A stretch of 64,000 nucleotides of DNA from NCBI GenBank assembly GCA_035280065.1, contig DATEGO010000059.1, positions 16,888-80,887 on the forward strand. The letters run 5' to 3'. This document shows, one piece after another, positions 9,419 through 62,308 of this stretch. Both the position numbers and the translations under genes were made by a program. Origin of the DNA: Candidatus Acidiferrum sp. (GTDB lineage Bacteria; Acidobacteriota; Terriglobia; Acidiferrales; UBA7541). The notes beneath the pieces are model-generated. The model was given only the letters and a program-made list of their open reading frames with translations. It was not told the DNA's origin and ran no database searches. Positions within the stretch are counted from its first letter, which is position 1; every line of letters starts with the position of its first letter.

Positions 9419-10369
9419 ATGGGGCGCACAACAGAATATTGCGAATGCATACTGCTCGGTGTGTTTTTGTTTACAGCAAGCAGCGGCGCCCAGGAATCGA
9501 CGTCCAAGCCGGAGGCAAATTCAGGAACTCCGGCCAGCGCGGCGGCGCAGAATGGGCCGGGCAAGGCCCTGAGCAGCGCGCTGGCTGCGGCTTGCTCCCA
9601 AAACCAGGCGGAATTCACCCCCTTCCTGACCGTTCGAAACAAGGAATCATTCTCCCGCATGACACCCGCAGCGCGGGTCGCCCTGATGAAGCGGTTTGTG
9701 CTTCTGGACGAGCCTGGGAAAGCGACGATTTCTGCGAATCCTTCGGGCCGGCCCATCGTTCGCTGCGAGACGCCGGGCGGCACGGTCGAGATGCAGATTG
9801 GCGGGGCGGACGTCCGGGATAATATGGCGTTTTTGCCGCTGGAACTTCACGAGACTACAGATTCCACCGGGGGAAGCGCCCGCCAGATCAACATGGGCTT
9901 GGTGCGCGAACAAGGCGATTGGAAACTGCTCTCGCTTGGAGTCCTTCTTCTGGACCTGCCGGCGCTCGAAGCAGAATGGGATGAGTCGGAGATCGAAGCG
10001 ACAGAGAAAGGCGCCCTCGAGTCTTTAAGAACCATTGCCGACGCGATTGAATCCTATCGGAAAAAATATTTGCGCCTCCCGGAATCCCTAGCGAACCTTG
10101 CCTCGCCTGCCCGCGGCAAACCCGGCACTGAGGCTGCCAGCCTGTTGGAAGCCGACCTCGCCAAGGGAGGAAAGGATGGCTACGCGTTTCGCTATGTGAT
10201 TGTCGGCGCTAGCAACGTAGGCGCTCCCGCGAAATACGAATTATCCGCCACTCCTCTCCGCTATGGACAGACGGGGCGGCGGTCGTTCTTCCGCGATTCG
10301 AACGGGATGTTGCACGCGGCAGACCGGCAGGGCGCCGTGGGCAGCGAAACCGATCCGAAAGCGGAATAG
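9419..10369 (+). CDS. Exported protein with C-terminal pilin-like/DUF2950-like domain
   Basis: N-terminal hydrophobic signal; C-terminal SLRTIADAIESY...P.SL..L...KDGYAFRY...ATP..YGQTGRRSFF.D..G pattern seen in acidobacterial pilin-like globular domains. Confidence 0.6.
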   Translation: MGRTTEYCECILLGVFLFTASSGAQESTSKPEANSGTPASAAAQNGPGKALSSALAAACSQNQAEFTPFLTVRNKESFSRMTPAARVALMKRFVLLDEPGKATISANPSGRPIVRCETPGGTVEMQIGGADVRDNMAFLPLELHETTDSTGGSARQINMGLVREQGDWKLLSLGVLLLDLPALEAEWDESEIEATEKGALESLRTIADAIESYRKKYLRLPESLANLASPARGKPGTEAASLLEADLAKGGKDGYAFRYVIVGASNVGAPAKYELSATPLRYGQTGRRSFFRDSNGMLHAADRQGAVGSETDPKAE

Positions 10370-11532
10370 TGCTCGCAAAAAGCCCTGGTACTTCTACCAC
10401 TTTGTGCTTGCACGGGCTTGGCGCTACTATCGTACGACCCGCTAAGGTGCGCCTTTTGCGAATTTCTCTTTCTTGCGTGCTTTTCACACTTGGCTTGCTA
10501 CTGCCCGGCCGCATCGCGGCGGCGATGCAAAGTTATTCTGAACCACCCCTGCCTGTTTTCGAGCTGCACAGCGGATTCTGGATCAATCTTCATCACACGT
10601 TGTATCAGGAGGCACGGCAGCGCAAAGCTGCCAGGTCGCGCGACGGAGGGGCGACGAAGTCCGCTCCGACAGCTGCGAAGAGCGTTCTTGCTGGAAAAGG
10701 ACTGACAGACGCAGAACAAAAGGCCTGGGACGATGCCGTAGCGTTTTACGCAGACAACTACGCGGACAAGGACCTGCTCTTCACGACGGAATTGATTCAA
10801 CTGAAAGACCAGCTTGGGGATTTCGAAGACTGCGACGAGCTTTCCGGGCGAAAGCGGAAATTTTGCGACGTGGGCTTGCCGGCGAACTTGACGCAAGTTC
10901 TGGAGGCGGCAGCTCCCGTTTATCGCAGGTATCTCTGGCCCGAACATGACAAGGCCAACCGACGGTGGATTCTACAAGTGGCTCCGCTGGTGCGTGAACA
11001 AGGTGTAGGACTCTCGGAACGGCTAGCGGATATTTATCAAACGCGCTGGCCGCACGGAAAAATCCGCGTGGACGTGGTGGCCTACGCCAACTGGGCCGGC
11101 GCTTACACGACAGTTGATCCTTTGCGCGTCACGATCTCCAGCCTGGATTCCCGCAACCAGGGGCCTCAAGCGCTCGAGGTGCTTTTTCATGAAGGCTCCC
11201 ATGGAATCGCGGAGCCGGTACAGACGGCGATTATCCGCGAGTGCCGGCAGCGCGATAAGGCCATTCCGCGGGATCTCTGGCACGCTCTGGTTTTTTACAC
11301 GACGGGCGAAGTGATCCGCACGGTGCTGACTTCTTCTTCGGCTTCGGCGAGTCGCGGAGACAAGGGGAGTGACGGCCCCGCGGGCACCTATAGCGCTTAT
11401 GCAGTTCGCGAAGGACTGTACCAGCGCGGGTGGAAGAACTATCTCGAACTCCTGCAGCGGTTCTGGCAGCCGTACCTTGACGGAAAGGCAACGTTTGACG
11501 ACGCAATTGCACGAATGGTGTCTTCGCTTTAG
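10369..11532 (+). CDS. Exported protein, putative zinc metallopeptidase; start uncertain
   Basis: Signal-like segment; GAYT strand followed by EVLFHEGSH (HExxH). Confidence 0.6.
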   Translation: MLAKSPGTSTTLCLHGLGATIVRPAKVRLLRISLSCVLFTLGLLLPGRIAAAMQSYSEPPLPVFELHSGFWINLHHTLYQEARQRKAARSRDGGATKSAPTAAKSVLAGKGLTDAEQKAWDDAVAFYADNYADKDLLFTTELIQLKDQLGDFEDCDELSGRKRKFCDVGLPANLTQVLEAAAPVYRRYLWPEHDKANRRWILQVAPLVREQGVGLSERLADIYQTRWPHGKIRVDVVAYANWAGAYTTVDPLRVTISSLDSRNQGPQALEVLFHEGSHGIAEPVQTAIIRECRQRDKAIPRDLWHALVFYTTGEVIRTVLTSSSASASRGDKGSDGPAGTYSAYAVREGLYQRGWKNYLELLQRFWQPYLDGKATFDDAIARMVSSL

Positions 11533-11601
11533 TAGGCCTGAGCCGCGCTCTCATTTTTTAAAGTTAAAGCGCGTGGTTTAGTTCTTAGACAGAGGCAGTT
11601 C

Positions 11602-12081
11602 TTAAGAGCTGGCGTCCTTGATGTCTTCCCGTGCCCGTCTCTGCGCGCTCTTCGCCTGCGCCCTAGCGTCCACATCCGAGTTCAGAACGTGAATGGCTTT
11701 GTCCAAGGGCAATGCCCTGTTTCTTGGCGGAGCTTCGCACGACTTCACGTCGCCGCCGGGACGCATGCCCGTCATGTCCCATTTCAGACAATTATATTTG
11801 AGTTTCAAATTGCGGCTCACGTGGAGCGCGGCGACGCAATCCTCTAGGCTTGAGAATTCGCTGCATGCGTCTCGCAAAGTTGTTTTCGGAGGCAGAAGCG
11901 CCTGCAATTGCAACGTCAGCTTCCGGTCTTCCTCCGGGTGAGCCGCAAGTTGCTCGGTAGCAGTGGGGCTGGGGTTCTTCTTAATCCATTTGAGAGGATT
12001 GTAAGAACGCGCGGTGGCGCCGGCAGCGCCGAGCAAAATGCTGACTCCCGCTGCACTAACAACGAACCATTTGTTTTTCAT
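11602..12081 (-). CDS. Exported hypothetical protein
   Basis: Sec signal MKNKWFVV...ATA; GAGGA RBS; four Cys. Confidence 0.7.
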   Translation of the reverse strand: MKNKWFVVSAAGVSILLGAAGATARSYNPLKWIKKNPSPTATEQLAAHPEEDRKLTLQLQALLPPKTTLRDACSEFSSLEDCVAALHVSRNLKLKYNCLKWDMTGMRPGGDVKSCEAPPRNRALPLDKAIHVLNSDVDARAQAKSAQRRAREDIKDASS

Positions 12082-12613
12082 GCTGTCCTCACTTCGAGGG
12101 CGGGCCCTGGGCTAGACCTAGTAGGCCACGATGCGAGGAGCGCATCGAGTTGTCGATGGTGCGGTACTCACCGAATGCGTTACGTTGACCTGGAGGGCAG
12201 GTTTTGAGGAGGGAGTACCTGTCCACCGGTGGCTGGCAGGCATCTCGACCGGAGCGCATCTCTTCGGTTTTTTGTGAAACCCGCGCGCCGGTGTTGCCCT
12301 GTTTCGTTTCTTTCGAACGTGTTGAAAGAGATTCGTGACGGCGCGGTGACGTTGTCGCAGCCATTCGCAATATGCTAGGCTTTCCCGGGTTGAGATTAAT
12401 CCGGACCCTTGCGTCACGCGAGCCCTGCGACGCGCGCAACTTTCCATAAGCCCCTCCGAAAGAGGCAGTCCCAGCAAGGGGAACCATCGGAGAATTGAGG
12501 CTCCGGAGAATCCATCGCCGCGGGGCTGTATTGCGTTCGTCCCCGTTTTTGACCGTCTGCAGCGGAACGGCCCCGGAAGCAGCCGGAGCCCCGAGAAAAG
12601 GAATCACCAGCCT

Positions 12614-13492
12614 ATGCCTGGCCAACAAGCAGCCTCGAAGACCGAAACCGTGCCCGTCGAAATCAAGCTTGCGCATTCGCCGGATTCCGACGATGCGTTC
12701 ATGTTCTACGCGTTGGCCACGCACAAGCTCTCCACTCCCGGTTACAAATACACGCACATTCTTTCGGACATCCAGTCGCTGAACGAGGCGGCGCTCTCGG
12801 AAACCTATGACGTCACAGCGATCAGCTTCGCCGCTTACCCAAGTCTTCGCGACAAGTATGTTCTTATCGATTGCGGCGCGAGCTTTGGAGAAGGCTACGG
12901 CCCGATCGTCGTATCAACAAAAGCGGTGAGGCCGCAGGAACTTACCGGAAAACGAATTGGCGTTCCTGGACTGAAAACTTCGGCGTATCTCACGCTGAAG
13001 CTTTTCGAACCCAATTTTGAGCCTGTTGTCATGCCCTTCGACAAAATCATTGACGCGGTTCAGAACAATCTTGTCGAAGCCGGCCTGCTCATTCATGAAG
13101 GGCAGCTTTTCTTTCCTGAAAAGGGACTGCACCGCGTGATGGACCTCGGAATTTGGTGGCAAGAACAAACGGGGCTGCCTCTTCCGCTAGGCGGAAATGC
13201 GGTTCGCCGCGCGCTGGGTCAAAAGCTCGGGCGCCAGATCGCGAAAACCATCCGCGACAGCGTTGCTTACGGCCTGGAACACCGCGAAGAAGCTCTGAAT
13301 TACGCCATGCAATTCGCGCGTGAGATGAACACGGAGCTAGCCGACCAATTTGTCGGCATGTACGTCAACAAGTGGACGCTCGGCTATGGAGAAAAGGGCA
13401 AGCAAGCGGTGAACGAGCTGATCGTGCGCGGCACGAATGCAGGTCTCCTCCCCGGCCCACCGACGGTGCAATTCCTCAGCGAAGAGGAATAG
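12614..13492 (+). CDS. mqnD: MqnA/MqnD-family futalosine-pathway protein, likely 1,4-dihydroxy-6-naphthoate synthase
   Basis: AHSPDSDDAFMFY, DIQSLN, GEGYGP, LLIHEGQ, GLPLPLG, MYVN. Confidence 0.8.
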   Translation: MPGQQAASKTETVPVEIKLAHSPDSDDAFMFYALATHKLSTPGYKYTHILSDIQSLNEAALSETYDVTAISFAAYPSLRDKYVLIDCGASFGEGYGPIVVSTKAVRPQELTGKRIGVPGLKTSAYLTLKLFEPNFEPVVMPFDKIIDAVQNNLVEAGLLIHEGQLFFPEKGLHRVMDLGIWWQEQTGLPLPLGGNAVRRALGQKLGRQIAKTIRDSVAYGLEHREEALNYAMQFAREMNTELADQFVGMYVNKWTLGYGEKGKQAVNELIVRGTNAGLLPGPPTVQFLSEEE

Positions 13493-13526
13493 AAATCGGA
13501 CCTGCGTAAGGTCCTTTCGGCGCGCT

Positions 13527-15089
13527 TTATTTTTTCGGCGTCAAATACAGATCCTGATAGTCAAAACTGAAATCGGCAAGCGGTGAAACCGCCACCATGG
13601 TCAAGTGATCGATGGCTCCGTCTGGTTTCAGCGTAAAGGTGAGGAACGCGTCTTCGATCGTGCGGTCTCGCCAATGAGCCTTGAAAGTGTCGTATTGCCA
13701 GTGTTGAAGATCCGCAACAGCTTTCGGCGTGTGGTCCAGTGTGAAAACAAGTTTGCCACCTTCCATCCGAATGGTAACGGGTCCATACCAGGGATCGGTG
13801 TAAACGCCCGCATATTTCTCTAGCGGCAAGGAAGGCTTTGAATCGGCGGCACGGCCGGATTCCTGCTGCCTCATGATCTCCGCGGCTTGCTTCTCGGCTT
13901 GCTCTTCCGCAGATTTGTGCGCCGCAATCCAATCCGCGGGCGCGAGTCCAAAGTAAGAATCGAGTATGTGGTACAGAATCGAGTCGAAAGCTCCGCCTTG
14001 CTCCGCGTTGGTCAGGATGACGACGCCGAGGTTTTCTTCGGGAACCAGCATGACACGCGAGACCATGCCCGCTACGCCGCCGGTGTGAGCTACCATTTCT
14101 CTTCCGTGGTAATCGTTAAGTCCCCATCCAAGTCCGTAGGCTGCGAATTTCGGCCTCTTCGCGGCAAGTGGAGAGGCCCCCGTACCGATCGGAAGAATTG
14201 TTTGCGCGCTCCACATCTCTCGCGATTGCCTCTCGCTGAAGATTCGTTCTTCGCGTCCGGGAATCTTTCCGTGATTGAGTTGAAGCAGGAGCCATTTCGC
14301 CATTTCGGCGGCGGAGGAGTTGATCGAGCCGGCCGGCCCTGCATTATCGAGACTTACAAACTCGATGGGTTGAAGCTTGCCGTCTACTTTCGAATGCGGC
14401 CAGGCGTAGTTGTCGCCCGGCTTGAAGTCGGCGTTGCTCAGATTTGTGGTGTGCATTCCCAAAGGAAGCAGAATTTTCTCCCGAACGTAATCTTCCCAGG
14501 ACTTCCCGGTCACCGCGGGAATGATCTGCCCAGCGGTCATGTAGAGCAAATTGTCGTATGCGAAGCGGCTGCGGAAACTGGAGGCCGGCTTCATGAAGCG
14601 CAGTTTGTAGATAATCTCAGCGCGGGTGAACGTGGTGTGTGGCCAGAAGAGCAGGTCGCCCTCACCCAGGCCCATGCCGCTTCTATGAGTCAGCAAATCG
14701 CGAATGGTCATTTCGTGAGATACGTACGGGTCGTACATCTGAAATCCCGTGAGACGCTCATATACCGGGTCGTCCCAGGAGATCTTGCCATCGTCGACCA
14801 GCGTGGCCAGCGTTGCGGAGGTAAACGCTTTTGTGTTTGAGCCAATGGCGAGGAGTGTGTTTTCATCCACTGGCGTCGGTTCACCAAGTTTCCGGACGCC
14901 GTATCCCTTGGCCAGCACGACCTTGCCGTCTTTCACGATGGCCACGGACAGACCGGGCACTTCAAAAGCTTTTAGAACTCGGGCGACATAGCCATCCAAA
15001 TCCGCAGGCGGGGCGTTCTGCGCCAATACGGGCGGGACGCAAATCATCACCAACAACCACAGCAACCATGGTCGCAGGCTGAGTTTCAT
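13527..15089 (-). CDS. Serine hydrolase (class C beta-lactamase fold) with C-terminal DUF3471-like domain
   Basis: Signal peptide, SNTK (SxxK), LLTHRSG, YDN (YxN), HTGG. Confidence 0.88.
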   Translation of the reverse strand: MKLSLRPWLLWLLVMICVPPVLAQNAPPADLDGYVARVLKAFEVPGLSVAIVKDGKVVLAKGYGVRKLGEPTPVDENTLLAIGSNTKAFTSATLATLVDDGKISWDDPVYERLTGFQMYDPYVSHEMTIRDLLTHRSGMGLGEGDLLFWPHTTFTRAEIIYKLRFMKPASSFRSRFAYDNLLYMTAGQIIPAVTGKSWEDYVREKILLPLGMHTTNLSNADFKPGDNYAWPHSKVDGKLQPIEFVSLDNAGPAGSINSSAAEMAKWLLLQLNHGKIPGREERIFSERQSREMWSAQTILPIGTGASPLAAKRPKFAAYGLGWGLNDYHGREMVAHTGGVAGMVSRVMLVPEENLGVVILTNAEQGGAFDSILYHILDSYFGLAPADWIAAHKSAEEQAEKQAAEIMRQQESGRAADSKPSLPLEKYAGVYTDPWYGPVTIRMEGGKLVFTLDHTPKAVADLQHWQYDTFKAHWRDRTIEDAFLTFTLKPDGAIDHLTMVAVSPLADFSFDYQDLYLTPKK

Positions 15090-50700: not shown

Positions 50701-51912
50701 TCAGGCCTTCGTTTTTCCGTCGCAGCAGTCGCCCGGAGGAATGGGGTTGCCGTGCGGGCAGGTTTTTGGGTGGCCGAGGAAGGTGCAGATGCGCGCGTCG
50801 AGTTCCGGGCTGATGATGTGTTCGAACCGGCAGGCTTGCGTGTGCGCTTCGGTTTCGTCCACCGCAAAAGTGTCTTTGAACAGCCGCTCCGCCAGTCGAT
50901 GGCGTCGCACCACGTCGCGCGCGCGCTGGCTTCCCGCGGTAGTGAGTTGCGCTGCTCCATTTTGCAGCGCGACCAAGTGCAGATCGGCCATGCGCGAGAG
51001 AACGCGAGCCGCAGGCTCTTCCTGCGCGGACGGCGTACTACCTGCCGAGCCAGAAGCGTGCAGGCGCGCGAATTCGGCGGGCTTTCCTTCTTCGCCGCAG
51101 ACCCAAATCTGTTCGAGCAAGTGGTCGAAGCGAATTTCGTCGTCCGAGGAAACGGATTTGCAGCAATCAGCCGTGTCTACTAGAGGACAGTTGAGTGGCT
51201 GGCTGGGTCCGTGCAGCGCAGAGTCATAATGTAGGTGGCCGTGGGCCAGCTCGATGCGCCGGTCGGCTTGCCGCGCGATGTCCGGATCGTGCGTGACCAT
51301 CAGAATGGTATGACCCGCATTGTGCAACTTGCGAAAGATTTCGATGACGATCCGTTCGTTGGCCTCGTCGAGATTGCCAGTGGGTTCGTCCGCAAGAATC
51401 AGCTTGGGCTGATTGATCAGCGCGCGCGCGATGGCTACGCGCTGCTGCTCGCCGCCGGAAAGCCGCGCTGGCAGATGCGTCAGGCGGTCGCCGAGGCCTA
51501 CACGCTTCAGGGCTTCCTCCGCTTCTTTTTCGTCGGTGACGCTGTGAAAATACTGCGCCAGCATCACGTTTTCGAGCGCGGTGAGATACGGCACAAGATG
51601 GAATTGCTGAAAAACGAAGCCGACTTTTTCCGCGCGGTAACGGACCAGGTCGTTCTCGCCCAAGTTCGCGAGATCGACCCCGTCAACCAACACGCGACCG
51701 CTCGTTAGCGTGTCCAATCCACCGAGAATGTTGATGAGCGTCGTCTTCCCCGAGCCGGAAGGGCCCATGAGCGCAACCCACTCGCCGGTGTTCACCGCGA
51801 AACTAACTCCGTTGAGCGCGTGCAGAGAGGCGTATCGCTTGATCAAATTGTCGATTACGACTTGTTGCGCCTCGGCGCGCGGCTGCAATTGGACTGGAGC
51901 CACCACACTCAC
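50701..51912 (-). CDS. LolD/MacB-type ABC ATPase fused to a DtxR/MntR-type metal-binding dimerisation domain
   Basis: GPSGSGKTT, LSGGEQQR, LADEPTGNLD, VTHD; C-terminal LT.AG...A..VVRRHRLAE...AH..AC.FEH...LGHPKTCPHGNPIP. Confidence 0.88.
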   Translation of the reverse strand: MSVVAPVQLQPRAEAQQVVIDNLIKRYASLHALNGVSFAVNTGEWVALMGPSGSGKTTLINILGGLDTLTSGRVLVDGVDLANLGENDLVRYRAEKVGFVFQQFHLVPYLTALENVMLAQYFHSVTDEKEAEEALKRVGLGDRLTHLPARLSGGEQQRVAIARALINQPKLILADEPTGNLDEANERIVIEIFRKLHNAGHTILMVTHDPDIARQADRRIELAHGHLHYDSALHGPSQPLNCPLVDTADCCKSVSSDDEIRFDHLLEQIWVCGEEGKPAEFARLHASGSAGSTPSAQEEPAARVLSRMADLHLVALQNGAAQLTTAGSQRARDVVRRHRLAERLFKDTFAVDETEAHTQACRFEHIISPELDARICTFLGHPKTCPHGNPIPPGDCCDGKTKA

Positions 51913-55992: not shown

Positions 55993-56015
55993 TAGTTGTA
56001 AATCATTTGCAACTA
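55993..56015. promoter_or_regulatory. Fur-box-like operator palindrome
   Basis: TAGTTGTAAATCATTTGCAACTA, an 11-1-11 inverted repeat with one mismatched pair and an AATCATT core, just upstream of the FTR1 operon. Confidence 0.75.
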
Positions 56016-56053: not shown

Positions 56054-56261
56054 CCGGACTAATTCAGTCCTATTTGATAGGATGCGCAACTCTAGCGCCC
56101 GGAATAAGCTATTCTCCGGCCCGCTCTTACGCCTCAGTAACTTACGCTGAATCAACGCGCCTCATTTGTCATCTACGGTTGGCAGGATTCATTGCCCGTT
56201 TTTTGCACGTTTTTCGTACTGCTCTTGTTCGTAGCAACTCCGCTGTGCGCCCAAGAAACTC

Positions 56262-56603
56262 TTGCTGGAAGCAGCGGTGAACGACAAGCCCGCCGTGCGT
56301 CTGCTCGACACTGGCGCAGATAACTCCATCGTGTCTCCATCCGTGGCTGGAATTACCGCCAAGCTCGACCCGCTGAAGCCTGAAAAGACAACGGGAGCCA
56401 GCGGAGACTACACCAAAGCCAAGATTGATCTGCGACTGGAAAAACGCCATTGGATAGACCGGCCCATTCTTGTAGTGGACTTGAGCGAAGCCAGCAAGCG
56501 ACTCGGCGCGCTTCTTGACGGGTTTGTGGGGAAGGACATTTTGAGGGAGTTTTCAGCGTGCGGGATTGATTACAAGGCAGCCGTAGTCGAGTTTGAGAAA
56601 TAA
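56262..56603 (+). CDS. Retropepsin-like aspartyl protease domain, probably N-terminally truncated
   Basis: LLDTGA catalytic motif, DGFVGKDIL, IDY; no convincing start. Confidence 0.65.
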   Translation: MLEAAVNDKPAVRLLDTGADNSIVSPSVAGITAKLDPLKPEKTTGASGDYTKAKIDLRLEKRHWIDRPILVVDLSEASKRLGALLDGFVGKDILREFSACGIDYKAAVVEFEK

Positions 56604-56720
56604 GCGGGATGCGCCCACAATGCGTCGGGTTAGATCGACACAGACTCCTGAGCGGGGATTTTGAGCGCTATCGCCTGCTTACAACATCTACTCGGGAGCA
56701 TAATGCTGTGGGCGGTTCCG

Positions 56721-56915
56721 ATGACCCGATTTAAGGAACTAGCAAGAATCCAAGCCGCGATTAAGCGCAGGAATGAATCCGAGCTTCGGTGGCCGATAGA
56801 GCACTGTCAGATGAGGCTGCGGATTGCCGCTCGAAAGGATCATGCAAACTACTGGCGCGGCATCCAGCTTGAGGTCGCGGACGCACTTCGCTCACTTGCT
56901 CCACCCACCACCTGA
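56721..56915 (+). CDS. Small hypothetical protein
   Basis: 64-aa helical-looking ORF with CATAAT upstream. Confidence 0.4.
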   Translation: MTRFKELARIQAAIKRRNESELRWPIEHCQMRLRIAARKDHANYWRGIQLEVADALRSLAPPTT

Positions 56916-57708
56916 CGAGGTCGTGGGATCGGTCGCTTGGCGCGTCAGGCAAAATTTTCACTCTGTGCGGGAGGGAGGCGACCAAGCCTCTCCTTTTTGG
57001 GGGAGGTTGGAGCCCTGGCCGCCTCCAGGTTACCTCGGACGTGGCAAGCTTAATTGTCCCGGCACGTTTGTTGGAACTGTCAAGAGAAACAGGTGCAATT
57101 TGTAGAGGAGCGCCGCGCACGATCATGTCTTTCAGGATTCGTTATCCTGCAAAACACCTGGAATCGCACTCGAAGGAAACCCTGCATCTCCGTTATTCGC
57201 GCCTTGCTACAAAGCAACGACAGCGAAGAACGTGATGCCTTAAAAGGCTTATCCAGCGGGGACCACTCAACTGGCGGTTTGAGTGCAAGACCGTGAAGCT
57301 GCCGCCGCTAATCTACCCCTAGCCCCACGGATTATTCCCAACTCCCGGCGCAGTTGCCGCACCTGTCAAAACTGACAGGTGCAAGCTCAGCTCTCAAGGC
57401 GTAATTACGATTTCCTCTGCACTGGATGCAGACTCAATGGCGGTTTGAGTTGCAACAATTCGCGAGGCACCGTCAGCCAACTCGACCCCGAGAGCGTGAC
57501 CCGTTTCACAGCCTCGCGTATAAATCCCTCAGATGCGGTAATCCTGTAACCCCTCTATCGGTACTTCCTGCGAGCGTCTGAGAACGCCTAGGAACGCCTA
57601 GGGCGGGCAGTGGTGCCATGACGCCCCCCTGTACGTAAGTACAGGTTACGCGGATTCGGACGTGATAGGCTTCATACGCCTAGCCTAGGATTAGCCTAGG
57701 AGAAATAT

Positions 57709-58146
57709 ATGGCTTCCGTATTCAAGATGCAGAAAATGCACTACGCGCTAGAGAAATTCGGCGATTTCATTAGCGGTTCTGGTTCTGGAGCCGTGTCAGC
57801 TTATGCCGCTATCCACGCTACGGCCGTCATCGACAGCCTTTGCGCCTTTGAGGAAAAGCTACATGCGCATGGTACTCGAGCGGATGACATCGAGTTTTAT
57901 CTAGGGACAGCTCTCTACGCAGCTTGCCAGTTCCAGGCCTACGTTGCGGGGGAAAAGGGCGATATCGCCAATCCGAATGCCGCCCTAGTTTACCGAGATT
58001 TTCTTGAGGCAAGAATCGAAAAACTGCACCTCCTGGAGCAGGATATGGATTCCTTGGATGCCGACAACGCAATTGGAGGCAATTTGAGCGGCGGTTTCAT
58101 CTTAAAAGAACCGTTCAGGGGTGTACCGCCTGAGAGCCAAAGGTGA
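57709..58146 (+). CDS. Hypothetical helical protein
   Basis: Strong AGGAGA RBS before ATG; 145 aa. Confidence 0.6.
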   Translation: MASVFKMQKMHYALEKFGDFISGSGSGAVSAYAAIHATAVIDSLCAFEEKLHAHGTRADDIEFYLGTALYAACQFQAYVAGEKGDIANPNAALVYRDFLEARIEKLHLLEQDMDSLDADNAIGGNLSGGFILKEPFRGVPPESQR

Positions 58147-58384
58147 CGCATCTATCTTGCTGATTTGTCGTAGCTTGCAGGCTCGCTTTTCGATGTCTAA
58201 GACGCTCCATGCGGGCGGCTGCCTTTGCCCGTCGAGCGGTTAAACGTTCGTCGAAGAGAGTATTGCCAAGTTTTTCCGCGCGCTTTTCCTGAACCTTCAC
58301 AATGCTCAGGGCGACGTGGCTCTTGTAGCGTATTAAAGAAGATTTAGAAACATCCCACTAGTCCGCTATGGTCCGTAATGGCGT

Positions 58385-58573
58385 GGGATGAGCATGTACG
58401 ATGTGGCCAAGTGGATTGGCGACACCGTTCAGACCATCGAAAAGCACTATGCTCCGTGGGTAACATAGCTGCGGGACCTTGCGCGCCGAACCATGGAAAA
58501 TGGCGAAGGATTAGAAAAAACCGATTGCACGATTATTACACAGCCGCCTGCAAAACTGGGGGTCATTCAATGA
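58385..58573 (+). pseudogene. Tyrosine recombinase/integrase C-terminal remnant
   Basis: Frame reads GMSMYDVAKWIGDTVQTIEKHYAPWVT*LRDLARRTMENGEGLEK, box II with the catalytic Tyr, an in-frame TAG and no upstream body. Confidence 0.72.
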
Positions 58574-58636
58574 AAGCCAGAGATAACAAACACTTTGTTG
58601 GAGGGCAGGTCTGTATAAGCTATTCTGTTCTTGCGC

Positions 58637-61600
58637 ATGGGGTCTCTTCGCCAAGCTTTGTCGCTCATTCTCTCCGGCCTCGTGCTTTTCTCGCAAGCCC
58701 TCGCCCAAGCGCAAACGCCAGCCTCACCGCCGAAGCAGGCCCCTTCCCAGAAGGTACATCCCGACCTCAAGCGAGCGCGCCGAGCGGCGGAGCGAGGTGA
58801 AAAAGCCGAATCCATAGGCCGTCTTGACGAGGCCTTGCGTGCCTACGAGGAGGCCGCGCGCTACGTTCCCCGGGACATGGCCTACGCGACGCGAGTGGCA
58901 GGTCTGCAATCCAAGTTGGTTCGTTCCTATGCGGATGCCGCGGAGCGCGACGCTTTAGCCAGCCGCTTTGACCAAGCAACGGAAGATCTTGGCGCCGCAT
59001 TGGCTATCGACCCGGCAAACGCTATCGTCCTGGAGCGATTGCGCGAGATAAAAAGCATGGGTAACGAGACCGGACCAAGGGTCGCGGCAGCTATTCCAGG
59101 ATTGCCTCAGTTGAAGCCGCAAGCGGGAAAGCGCAGTCTCGACCTGCGCGGAGACACGAAGACCGTTTACGAGCAACTGGCAAGCATTTTTGGCCTCAGG
59201 GTCACTTTTGACCCCGACCTGATCGTTAGAAACGTGCGTTTGAATATCGAAGACGTAGATTTTCAGAACGCGGTGAAAGTTCTCGCTGCGCAAACCGGTA
59301 CGTTCTGGCGCCCGGTAAACGCTGCGTTGATGTTTGTCGCCGCGGATACGCCGGAAAAACGCAGGCAGTTCGATTTGCAAGCGGAGCAGACTTTTCCCCT
59401 TTCTTCCGCCATCAGTTCCGAGGACGCTACGGAAGTTTTGCGCATCCTGCGTGAAATCACGGGTGCTCCACACATTGACCTCGACACGCGCACGCACAGC
59501 ATCACTATGCGCGATACTCCGGAGCGGCTGGCTCTCACCGGCGCGCTGATTCAGCAGATGGAAAGAGCGCGCGGCGAATTGATGCTCGAAATTGAACTGC
59601 TGGAAGTCGACAAGAACACCGCAAGGAAACTCGGAGTTGAACCTCCCACTAGTCACCGACTAATCGCCCTCCCCCCCAATTTGCTCAGCCAGTTGACTCA
59701 GGCAGGCAATGTGACAGCGCTCCAGACGCTCCTTGCCGGAATTTTTGGAAGCGCAGTAAGTGGAGGGTCCTCATCGGTCAGTTCGCTCATTCCGCCAATC
59801 GTGGCCGTTGGGGGCGGCAAAACCACGTTTCTTCTGACTCTTCCTTCCGCCGCTGTGGACTTTTCGGATGCTCTCTCACTCGTACAGAGCGGCCGCCAGG
59901 TTCTTTTGCGTGCGCAGGACGGAAAGCCCGCCACTTTCTTTGTTGGCCAGCGATTCCCCATTACCCTTTCTCTGCTTTCCGGTAGCGTGGGAACGACCGC
60001 CTTTACTCCCAATCCAGGAGGCGCGAGCAATCCATTCCCTAGCACTTCCTTCGCAGCTGGGAAAGGACCGGCCTCTCTTGTGGCTGCCGATTTTCTGAAT
60101 AACGGTTCGTTGGACATCGCCGCGGTCAACGAAATCGATAATTCCGTCACGCTTCTGCTGAACCAGAACAGCAGTCAGGGAACATTCGCTGAGGCCACGG
60201 GTTCTCCCATTTCACTGGGCTCTGCCCGCGCCGCGGCGCCGGCCACACACCCCGGAATCGCCTCGGCGACATTCACAAACAGTGGATGCCACGACTTGGT
60301 TGTCAGTGATCCGCTTGCGAACCAGGTGGACGTGCTCCTCAGCAATTGCGACGGTACCTTTCAGAAACCAGTGGCAATTCCCGCCGGCTCCAATCCCACA
60401 GCAGTAGCCACAGGGGACTTCAATGGTGACGGCAAACAGGACTTCGCCGTGGTCAACCAGAACGACAATTCAGTTTCCATTTTTCTTGGCGACGGCACGG
60501 GGAAATTCACTGCCGCGACCGGTTCGCCCTTCGTTCCCGCGAGGCAACTCGTCATCACTTCTACATCTCTCCTGGATGGTGTTCTGAACAGCGCTTACAA
60601 CGCCACACTGCAATCCATTGGAGGAATTGGAGCGGTAACCTGGAGCCTCACAACGGGAACCCTACCTGCGGGCCTGACTCTGAATCCCAGCACGGGAGCC
60701 ATTACCGGCACGCCCACCGCAGCAGGAACCTCCGCTATCACGGTCAACGCGATTGATTCCGCCAGTCCTCCGAATTCCGCCACTATCGCAGTCAGCATCA
60801 CTGTCAACACCAGCGCGCCCGCATTTGCCATTTCGACGGCGTCGCTTCCCAACGGAACAATCGGCGTGCCATACGATCAGATTCTTACGGCCACTGGAGG
60901 GACTGCTCCATTTACGTGGACCGTTTCGTCGGGTTCCCTTCCTGCTGGATTGACTTTGAGTCCCACCGGCGAAATTACGGGAACTCCCACTTCCACCGCG
61001 ACAACGCCGCCAAGTTTTACGTTCACCGTGACCACGACGGACTCCAGCGCCACACCTTTAACGGCACAAAAGCAGTTCACTTTGACCCCGATCCCTGCTA
61101 CGGCTGCAGCGCGTGGCCCCGTAGCGATCGTCCAGCACGATTTCAATGCCGATGGCAATCAAGACTTGGCTATCGTAAATCAAGCAACGAACAACGTGAC
61201 GATCCTCCTGGGAAAAGGCGACGGCACTTTCACCGAAGCTACCGGCTCGCCGATTTCGTCGGGCAACGGGCCCGTGGCGATCGCGGCCGGCGACTTAAAC
61301 GGCGATTCAAAACCGGATTTGGCCGTTGTGAATCAAACGGACAATACAGTCAGCGTGTTGCTGAACAACGGTGACGCAACTTTCGCAGCCAGCGCAAGCT
61401 CACCTCTTCAAACAGGGGCGGGGACTTCACCCAACGGCGTCGCCATCGCGGACTTCAATCAAGACGGACTTGCGGATATCGCTGTGACCAACAGCGGAGC
61501 CAATAGCTTCAGCGTGTTCGCGGGAATTTCAGCAGGTCTGTTCAGCCTAGCTTTCCAGCCGCCTGCCGGCCCAACCGGTTCCACGCCGACCGCTATCATT

Positions 61601-62308
61601 GCAGGAACTTTCGCGACAGGCGGCTTTCCCGACGTCGCGATCACGAATGACGTCCCCGGGGCGGCCGGCGATGTCACCGTGATTCTCAGCCCAGCCAGCC
61701 TGTTTGCCAACGGTGTCGCCCGCGGAGTCCAGCAGCAGCCCTACCCCGGTTCGGAATACGTGGACCTTGGAGTGAAAATCAAAGCGACGCCGACGCTTCA
61801 TTCGAATTCGGAAGTGACCCTGCAATTAGAATTTGAAATTCGCGCGCTTGCGGGAAGCGCCGTCAACGGCATTCCCGTCCTTTCGAATCGCACGCTTTCA
61901 CAAACGGTGCGAGTGAAGGAAAACGAGCCAACGCTGATTACAGGCATGACGGACACGGAAGAGACCCGCTCCATTGCGGGTCTGCCGGGTTTCGCAGAGG
62001 TTCCCACGCTGAGATATGCGTTTAGTTCAAAGAGCCACACTTTTCAGGACACCGAGCTTCTCATCGTGATTACCCCACGCAGGCTTCGCTTGGCGGATCA
62101 TCTTACGCGGACTCTCTACGCGGGCCGTGGCGACGTTGGTCGCGGTGGGGCAGGTGCGGGATTCCGGGGAACTCCAACGCCAACGCCGCCGCAACCTCAG
62201 CCGCAACCCGAGCCACCGCTCCAGCAGCCTCAGCCGCGGCCTGAGCAGCCTCAACAGCAACCGCCTCAACCCCAACAACCGAAGCAACAGCCCGGTACTC
62301 ATCGATGA
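58637..62308 (+). CDS. Secretin (GspD/PilQ superfamily) with TPR-like N-terminus and inserted FG-GAP propeller plus two He_PIG Ig-like domains
   Basis: Signal peptide; N-domains (ITMRDTPERL); core motifs LMLEIELLEV...LGV, LRAQDGKPATFFVGQRFP, YVDLGVKIKATP, GIPVLSNR...VRVKENE...ITG, LPGFAEVP.L..AF, TELLIVITP; P/Q-rich tail. Confidence 0.85.
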   Translation: MGSLRQALSLILSGLVLFSQALAQAQTPASPPKQAPSQKVHPDLKRARRAAERGEKAESIGRLDEALRAYEEAARYVPRDMAYATRVAGLQSKLVRSYADAAERDALASRFDQATEDLGAALAIDPANAIVLERLREIKSMGNETGPRVAAAIPGLPQLKPQAGKRSLDLRGDTKTVYEQLASIFGLRVTFDPDLIVRNVRLNIEDVDFQNAVKVLAAQTGTFWRPVNAALMFVAADTPEKRRQFDLQAEQTFPLSSAISSEDATEVLRILREITGAPHIDLDTRTHSITMRDTPERLALTGALIQQMERARGELMLEIELLEVDKNTARKLGVEPPTSHRLIALPPNLLSQLTQAGNVTALQTLLAGIFGSAVSGGSSSVSSLIPPIVAVGGGKTTFLLTLPSAAVDFSDALSLVQSGRQVLLRAQDGKPATFFVGQRFPITLSLLSGSVGTTAFTPNPGGASNPFPSTSFAAGKGPASLVAADFLNNGSLDIAAVNEIDNSVTLLLNQNSSQGTFAEATGSPISLGSARAAAPATHPGIASATFTNSGCHDLVVSDPLANQVDVLLSNCDGTFQKPVAIPAGSNPTAVATGDFNGDGKQDFAVVNQNDNSVSIFLGDGTGKFTAATGSPFVPARQLVITSTSLLDGVLNSAYNATLQSIGGIGAVTWSLTTGTLPAGLTLNPSTGAITGTPTAAGTSAITVNAIDSASPPNSATIAVSITVNTSAPAFAISTASLPNGTIGVPYDQILTATGGTAPFTWTVSSGSLPAGLTLSPTGEITGTPTSTATTPPSFTFTVTTTDSSATPLTAQKQFTLTPIPATAAARGPVAIVQHDFNADGNQDLAIVNQATNNVTILLGKGDGTFTEATGSPISSGNGPVAIAAGDLNGDSKPDLAVVNQTDNTVSVLLNNGDATFAASASSPLQTGAGTSPNGVAIADFNQDGLADIAVTNSGANSFSVFAGISAGLFSLAFQPPAGPTGSTPTAIIAGTFATGGFPDVAITNDVPGAAGDVTVILSPASLFANGVARGVQQQPYPGSEYVDLGVKIKATPTLHSNSEVTLQLEFEIRALAGSAVNGIPVLSNRTLSQTVRVKENEPTLITGMTDTEETRSIAGLPGFAEVPTLRYAFSSKSHTFQDTELLIVITPRRLRLADHLTRTLYAGRGDVGRGGAGAGFRGTPTPTPPQPQPQPEPPLQQPQPRPEQPQQQPPQPQQPKQQPGTHR

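Follow-up and report, generated by a model that had tools for sequence, protein, structure and literature searches.

The stretch of DNA analysed here (the window) comprises 64,000 nucleotides of contig DATEGO010000059.1 from the Candidatus Acidiferrum sp. assembly GCA_035280065.1. Towards its end lies a single open frame (58631-62308, 1,225 codons; 1,223 aa from the ATG at 58637), similar in GC content to the flanking DNA, whose product is a secretin predicted to carry a large folded cargo on its central gate hairpin, GATE1. This protein is referred to below as the orphan secretin. Its features are as follows:

58631-62308, + strand: orphan secretin with gate-tethered cargo, starting at TTG 58631 (1225 aa) or ATG 58637 (1223 aa)
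58637-58705, + strand: signal peptide, signal peptidase I (SPI)-like (AxA, then Q), lipobox absent (read from the sequence by hydrophobicity scan and by eye against relatives)
58766-59068, + strand: TPR-like helical domain (weak Pfam TPR matches; helices in the model)
59132-59371, + strand: N0 domain (aligned to PilQ N0; model)
59381-59563, + strand: N3 ring-building domain (Secretin_N below cut-off, E=2e-5; model)
59573-59977, + strand: secretin domain, first half, through the outgoing GATE1 strand (alignments, model)
59978-60040, + strand: N-side flexible linker (predicted local distance difference test score, pLDDT, <50; 32 residues from pivot to first propeller strand)
60041-60532, + strand: FG-GAP propeller blades 1-3 (Pfam, model, motifs)
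60548-61090, + strand: two He_PIG immunoglobulin (Ig)-like domains in the loop between blades 3 and 4 (He_PIG in two stretches, E=3e-23)
61112-61684, + strand: FG-GAP propeller blades 4-7 (Pfam, model, motifs)
61685-61756, + strand: C-side linker ending in the clade motif QxPYPxxE (alignment, model)
61757-62089, + strand: secretin domain, second half (PF00263, E=4e-25; PDB secretin matches)
62168-62305, + strand: Pro/Gln-rich tail without the cohesin domain that the GspD paralogue has (sequence)

By domain content, pivots and fold the gene is a secretin. The Pfam Secretin match scored 88.7 bits against a cut-off of 27.5 and covered residues 1038-1150, i.e. profile positions 51-166 only; the first half of the domain was aligned via insert-less relatives. 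Pfam also returned FG-GAP_3 in six stretches and He_PIG in two, with TPR weak, and the Secretin_N match (25.1 bits) fell slightly below its cut-off, the N3 fold being seen in the models. Sequence matches in the PDB were to PilQ, RcpA, GspD and pIV. The first secretin half consists of outer strands, a clade-specific helical cap with a GGG hairpin and the inner strand leading to pivot G439 (codon 59945-59947), and the second of return pivot G1047, GATE2, outer strands and the amphipathic helical loop (61982-62023). The protein is far under the GspD cut-off (TIGR02517, 63.6 against 351 bits), with the gsp operon absent, and scores 59 against 284 bits for PilQ (TIGR02515), with neither AMIN domains nor a pilMNOPQ operon.

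According to the original prediction, the secretin core is split by roughly 590 aa. We counted 599 residues between P443 (GQRFP) and Y1043 (YVDLG), as compared with 22-46 in insert-less relatives, and the motifs lie where they had been placed: ATFFVGQRFP at 59930-59959, seven blade motifs at 60086-61633, the LPAGLTL/ITGTPT pairs at 60662-60991 and the returning gate motif EYVDLGVKIKATP at 61754-61792. An AlphaFold2 model computed on a 143-sequence alignment (mean pLDDT 84.8, predicted template modelling (TM) score 0.55) contained TPR, N0, N3, two disordered linkers, a well-predicted insert and, flanking the insert on either side, long secretin strands (pLDDT about 65-90). In agreement with Pfam and with the predicted arrangement of seven FG-GAP blades with two He_PIG domains between blades 3 and 4, the blades close one propeller in the model and the Ig pair is looped out. 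The insert superposed on integrin alphaIIb (7la4) with Z 33.3 and a root-mean-square deviation of 2.9 Å over 339 aligned residues. Only four of the seven blade motifs keep a full DxDxDG-type calcium loop, the other three being degenerate in sequence. For the full-length model, Foldseek placed PilQ and InvG on top, the TM-scores being kept low by the flexible arrangement of the domains, and the VIA top-50 consisted of propellers only, with no secretins. The model of an insert-less orthologue matched secretins end to end (top 12 all secretins, Z 9.0-13.4).

Secretins are understood as symmetric homo-oligomers in which short GATE1 hairpins meet centrally to seal a 75 Å pore. In XcpD the central gate spans residues 466-496, with pivot G466 and tip T477/S480; cysteines at the gate tip cross-link and the closed hole is <15 Å (PMC10550240). 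A profile of the insert-less relatives aligned with XcpD (5WLN) across the gate, where G466 corresponds to G439, T477/S480 to about 450/453 and G496 to G1047. Since both pivots are matched and the tip falls at about 450-453, the insert is located at the GATE1 tip, as had been proposed for the inner gate, and the cargo is predicted to replace that tip. The same alignment ruled out an insertion in an ordinary outer loop. Glycines were present at both pivot positions in 42/42 propeller forms. GATE1 measured 379-687 aa in all 42 members of the family that were read, and the short hairpin characteristic of secretins was found in none of these. In 51 propeller proteins the linkers reached at least 26 and 23 residues from the two pivots (medians 31 and 26); for comparison, the whole InvG GATE1 has 22 residues.

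Among 120 listed homologues, which include the window's own protein, 114 hold both gate motifs and hence the whole design, the remaining six being incomplete. The spacing between the motifs was 400-499 aa in 46 of the 114 and 550-649 aa in 68. The best homologues, where named, belong to Candidatus Acidoferrum or Acidobacteria, and the shorter ones were mostly fragments. In the window's family (UBA7541, Acidiferrales) an N0-N3-secretin query matched 189 of 192 genomes at E<=1e-60, and two of the three non-matching genomes hold frameshifted or split copies. The orphan was matched in 146/151 genomes of Bryobacteraceae and, with short frames, in 147/151 genomes of a third family (these three tallies, like those for GspD and for orphan-only genomes below, include four genomes marked unpublished, which support no other claim). 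The gene is therefore near-core in three families, and this distribution, together with the 114 homologues of the same design, ruled out a chimera or misassembly. It should be added that within a group of three family loci (L019, L098 and L099) one protein has an extra propeller domain of ~50 aa with a weak E1_FCCH match, and two members are frameshifted or split, i.e. pseudogenes or assembly errors.

A tree was calculated by a quick method from 92 cores with GATE1 removed; one fetched protein, in which the motif was not parsed, was left out. GspD proteins formed a clade of 27 rows (support 92; GATE1 of 22-39 aa), apart from which stood an orphan clade of 64 rows (Shimodaira-Hasegawa-like approximate likelihood ratio test, 96). 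The 42 rows of the window's family, all with a propeller, make up a single clade (99) that lies within a wider set of insert-less orthologues from two sister families, which keep FTR1 or truB as neighbours; a single propeller gain at the base of the family follows from this nesting and the shared neighbourhood. Igs were added within the family by lineage, either two He_PIG domains between blades 3 and 4 or three Big_2 domains after blade 1. The gene neighbours are a divergent FTR1-ABC operon (38/41 family loci) and a convergent truB (34/41). No partner gene in operon was found, nor was a pilus or secretion gene seen beside the orphan at the family loci. The gene thus belongs to a clade of orphan secretins that extends throughout the class and is distinct from GspD, which is encoded in an operon.

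The orphan clade had remodelled GATE1 before any cargo arrived, with a proline-rich return strand, often a tip helix, and the helical cap. In insert-less orphans of one sister family (L045-L048, L095) the TPR domain is absent and a hydrophobic helix lies at the GATE1 tip. One rival reading is that the protein is a degenerate scaffold, in which the secretin half would form no closed ring and would serve only to fix a lectin-like propeller to the periplasmic face of the outer membrane. In its favour, the canonical proline of S/N-P-x-I is missing from the clade, the return strand of GATE1 has lost its beta-register, and some members have a truncated amphipathic loop or none. However, these changes are also found in insert-less members and therefore predate the cargo. 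Conservation of N0, N3, GATE2 and the two pivots (mean identity of 46-59% across genera) and the near-core status of the gene speak against it as well, and a degenerate scaffold is quite improbable.

The original prediction called for a survey of homologues for variable passengers, and such passengers were found at the same loop in Bryobacteraceae. We read 25 of the 146 orphans of this family, 20 picked for long frames and five fetched earlier; the other 121 have frames of at most about 645 codons. In 9/25 a cargo sits at exactly the GATE1 loop: a seven-bladed FG-GAP propeller in three, BACON-like repeats in three, I-set Igs in one and a FliD-like cargo in two. The Ig cargo comprises four tandem I-set/Ig_3 domains (Pfam, E=3e-29). 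The BACON-like cargo has four repeats and owes its label to a BLASTP match to a Pfam BACON_2 protein (E=5e-10, low-complexity sequence), and the two-domain FliD-like cargo to a single weak match to FliD 5xlj (E=0.023); Pfam gave no name to either. Seven further loci yielded three with cargo (two propellers, one of them cut by a contig end, and one FliD-like), three without and one duplicate of a known locus. At locus L061 an insert-less orphan secretin is immediately preceded, in the same orientation, by the gene for a 1,417-aa BACON_2-repeat protein (10119-14369, - strand), a possible unfused counterpart of the BACON-like cargo.

In the tree the cargo types sit on different branches among insert-less rows. 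An approximately unbiased (AU) test on 26 rows rejected one clade for the propeller-bearing cores of both families (p=6e-11; the group was named after earlier trees had been seen), and so the propeller was gained twice or transferred as a module. Five long frames of the third family were read, and a propeller was present in one only, a second copy on a 7-kb contig, which resembles the window's family and may be mis-binned. Cargo is absent from most Bryobacteraceae and nearly all third-family orphans, and none of the 27 GspD paralogues read carries any. When a Bryobacteraceae query was run across the phylum (E<=1e-15), 0/201 genomes matched, in the absence of a positive control. Propeller, Ig, BACON-like and FliD-like modules are typical of surface proteins. 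Since unrelated cargoes share the loop in relatives while the 27 GspD paralogues are free of them, the GATE1 loop is a recurrent cargo site for surface-type modules.

The secretin lumen is ~75 Å and the outer lip 65-70 Å wide, and on opening the GATE1 tip swings ~40 Å lipward (PMC6155069). By rough arithmetic with an assumed disc of 45 Å, fifteen propellers occupy ~740,000 Å3 (1.1 million with the Igs) as against ~440,000 Å3 in a 75 x 100 Å cylinder, so that the earlier argument that 12-15 propellers cannot fit the lumen holds; one propeller (~49,000 Å3) fits. Canonical gating by 12-15 cargo-bearing copies is excluded.

If every subunit nevertheless carried cargo, all 12-15 GATE1 hairpins would lie open along the wall and the cargoes would form an external crown, acting as a multivalent adhesin or a shield. 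Such homo-oligomeric self-display is geometrically possible, given that 30 linker strands fit the 65-70 Å lip, with 15 discs of 45 Å needing a circle of ~216 Å outside it. Furthermore, the core is complete and folds as a secretin, as seen in the insert-less orthologue; the secretin structures matched in the PDB each hold 12-15 copies of one chain; the clade's own helical cap could seal the pore from above; and the orphan persists without GspD in one sister-family genome, described below. On the other hand, the secretin prepore forms before membrane insertion (PMC4604470), so that 15 tethered cargoes of 40-75 kDa would have to pass singly, with no place to be kept meanwhile. Once complete, such a pore would stand open as a permanent hole of 65-75 Å, and gate defects are reported to make secretins leak (PMC10550240). 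The ring-building domains, moreover, evolve faster than those of GspD. Taken together, we consider the all-cargo crown unlikely. Of the original prediction, the position at GATE1 is supported; the gate held open in a homo-oligomer is a conjecture.

A second rival places the cargo below the gate in the vestibule, as a periplasmic plug, comparable to a fused SlkA/B, that blocks influx or shuts an idle secretin as long as no pilus machine is docked. Slk proteins are described as plugs on the vestibule side of PilQ (PMC13392014), a single cargo of 260-470 aa fits by volume, and translocation would be unnecessary; a steric job, being open to any fold, would also explain why the cargoes are unrelated. 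Against this, the cargoes are all of surface type and the added two to three Igs (GATE1 up to 687 aa) suggest free space, most Bryobacteraceae and nearly all third-family orphans have no cargo, and a covalent tether prevents the displacement that Slk proteins undergo. We regard a plug as slightly less likely than the crown.

We favour, with a probability of about 0.45, a reading in which conventional secretin makes up most of the ring and one or a few orphan subunits carry the cargo on the outer side of the gate, where it would serve as tethered cork and adhesin. The orphan secretin would be exported by Sec and its domains would fold in the periplasm, where it would co-assemble with GspD, which has the same TPR-N0-N3-secretin layout, or with PilQ. 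Its GATE1 would swing up the wall as in open InvG, and with linkers of 25-30 residues the propeller could come to rest in the outer mouth or above it, a (pseudo)pilus perhaps pushing it out. The Ig domains would point away from the cell, and the normal gates of the other subunits would keep the pore sealed. By integrin topology the inter-blade loops would face away from the tethers. The cargoes, which are of surface type, vary quickly and grow by Igs in outward loops, would therefore fit the free space beyond the outer mouth. A minority subunit is favoured because a 15-copy cargo ring would be held open and would have 15 folded cargoes to park during prepore assembly.

The secretin paralogues of the same genomes also bear on this choice. 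The window's genome (G000, 88% complete) has three secretins, namely a PilQ-like one in a pilMNOP-type operon (contig C100), a GspD-like one, which is a predicted lipoprotein of TPR-N0-N3-secretin-cohesin layout beside two pseudopilins (C97), and the orphan. Single PilB-like, PilT-like and PilC-like genes were identified by motif scan; the three secretins, the PilB-like ATPase and the PilC-like platform protein are distributed over contigs C100, C97, C59, C116 and C33. This suggests that one motor may serve several secretin pores. In Bryobacteraceae, a search for orphan-only genomes returned 2-8 matches in each of the 151 genomes and so singled none out. GspD is present in 191/192 genomes of the window's family; in the remaining one (G106) gspD is missing along with pepA and gspG, which we read as an assembly gap. 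Across nine matched genomes the conservation of the orphan was below that of GspD in N0 (48 vs 63%) and N3 (46 vs 64%), each domain being less conserved in 35/36 pairs. According to published work, no element of secretins is better conserved than the amphipathic loop, which probably initiates contact with the membrane (PMC6155069; PMC6532946). In the propeller clade it is present, less bulky and sometimes truncated (5.4 bulky residues by column counts in 44 propeller orphans vs 7.7 in 27 GspD). In this order GspD has a lipobox and the orphan, judged by eye, the SPI-like signal. A dependent subunit is supported by the lack of an operon, the less conserved N0 and N3, the fewer bulky residues and the near-universal GspD. 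Its orphan status, the faster evolution of its ring-building domains and an amphipathic loop weaker than that of GspD led us to rank the minority subunit, itself an alternative named in the original prediction, slightly higher than the crown.

Several observations weigh against a minority subunit in a mixed ring. In the open-access literature we found no report of a natural hetero-oligomeric secretin. One sister-family genome (G013, 95% complete; locus L094, contig C123) keeps an insert-less orphan and PilQ, and its gspD is cleanly missing between smpB and two pseudopilin genes in the pepA-smpB-gspG locus. The orphan is ~24% identical to GspD over the N-terminal half, and 25-30 residues of linker would also suffice for a cargo hanging down into the periplasm. 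The amphipathic-loop argument is soft: cargo carriers among the Bryobacteraceae have 6-7 bulky residues in the loop, and by Wimley-White sum the propeller clade (-3.5) is at least on a par with PilQ of the window's genome (-3.2). As for the lipobox contrast, several GspD proteins of other families are also without a lipobox, and a simple pattern flagged Cys in eight propeller rows. Related genomes, furthermore, are non-independent samples. It is also possible that the orphan forms a stand-alone pore for other cargo, as secretins are known to export slime, too (PMC12475490).

Within the mixed-ring reading, the secretin paralogue would be a display subunit that exports an interchangeable, loop-tethered passenger via the ring's own pore in one or a few copies per ring, a proposal to which we give somewhat less than even odds. 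The original prediction had proposed the display of a Ca-binding adhesin. Display of adhesin-type modules is the likeliest role, strengthened by the unrelated surface-type cargoes in another family; calcium binding is putative, with full calcium loops in four of the seven blades.

Comparison with known systems helps to place the protein. It shares N0, N3, the double-barrel secretin, both pivot glycines, GATE2 and, in a less bulky form, the amphipathic loop with GspD, XcpD and PulD of type II secretion systems (T2SS; PDB 5WQ8, 5WLN, 6HCG), which differ in a GATE1 of about 30 residues instead of ~600 and in N1/N2 where the orphan has TPR; no T2SS genes occur near the orphan. The acidobacterial GspD paralogue, which is found in the same genomes, belongs to a sister clade and has the same order of periplasmic domains, differs in its predicted lipoprotein nature, pseudopilin neighbours, terminal cohesin and constant lack of cargo (27/27). 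With integrin alpha the orphan shares the closed seven-bladed FG-GAP propeller (Z 33) and an extra domain in an inter-blade loop, for which the alpha-I domain offers a parallel; the orphan propeller differs in being bacterial, with 16% identity, four intact calcium-type loops and no beta subunit. Autotransporters and intimins resemble it in idea, as pore proteins displaying their own variable passenger, although their fold is unrelated and the orphan would be a multimeric secretin pore with an internal loop passenger tethered at both ends.

A precedent for the proposed geometry is the PilY1 cork on PilQ of Pseudomonas aeruginosa, where one seven-bladed propeller lies above the PilQ gate with an adhesin domain outward, in one copy per ring (PMC11525922). 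PilY1, however, is a separate pilus-tip protein of another propeller family, while the FG-GAP propeller of the orphan is tethered at both ends inside the secretin chain. PF05567 (PilY1) gave no match on the orphan secretin at E<=0.1, and in a scan asking whether the orphan replaces a missing PilY1 it matched 0/61 genomes, control genomes also being unmatched. SlkA and SlkB, as described, likewise put an asymmetric mass at the gate of PilQ, yet they are separate periplasmic proteins displaced when the pilus assembles (PMC13392014). In the open-access literature we found no described cargo-bearing secretin gate, in line with the original statement. None of the outcomes named there as refuting it was encountered: both flanks are modelled with long secretin strands, the insert lies in the gate and the assembly is not chimeric.

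Upstream of the divergent FTR1 gene (- strand), the palindrome AGTTGnAA-n5-TTnCAACT was located at 55994-56014. With up to three mismatches and within 110 nt upstream of FTR1 it recurred at 38/40 loci vs 26/4000 random windows, and it is likely a metal-responsive operator, presumably akin to the Fur/Mur boxes that it resembles. Iron co-regulation of the orphan was considered and rejected: the palindrome stays by FTR1, and in the window as well as in several relatives an insertion of 1-3 kb parts the two genes, so that no such link is required. The operon encodes an FTR1-FtrD fusion, two MacB/FtsX-type permeases, a GBBH-like_N protein and an ABC-transporter ATPase fused to an iron-dependent repressor metal-binding domain (50701-51912, - strand; PF00005 + PF02742). 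The spacing between FTR1 and the secretin gene is only 100-300 bp in most relatives; in the window they are separated by a 2.5-kb stretch (56104-58626) flanked by a perfect 12-bp direct repeat, ATAAGCTATTCT, which was not found in three close relatives. The stretch contains a degraded aspartyl-protease-like frame, an unnamed 145-aa open reading frame and, near 58400-58470, what we take to resemble the C-terminus of a tyrosine integrase. It is probably a decayed integrated element.

In summary, a near-core gene of an abundant soil lineage appears to put a folded protein of 40-75 kDa on the GATE1 hairpin of a secretin, and its relatives use unrelated modules. At least one rule must then fail for these proteins: that secretins are homo-oligomers, that the lumen is closed by the gate, or that the gate is free of cargo. 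Mixed secretin rings, and the way in which a secretin is kept sealed, could be studied in these genomes as natural test cases, and the site would be a natural permissive one for engineering display on secretins. The cargo is a candidate surface adhesin or phage receptor in Acidobacteria. If a display subunit of this kind exists, it would represent a natural hetero-oligomeric secretin and an autotransporter-like surface route built on a secretin; if both mixed rings and export through the pore are true, this would be a new display mechanism.

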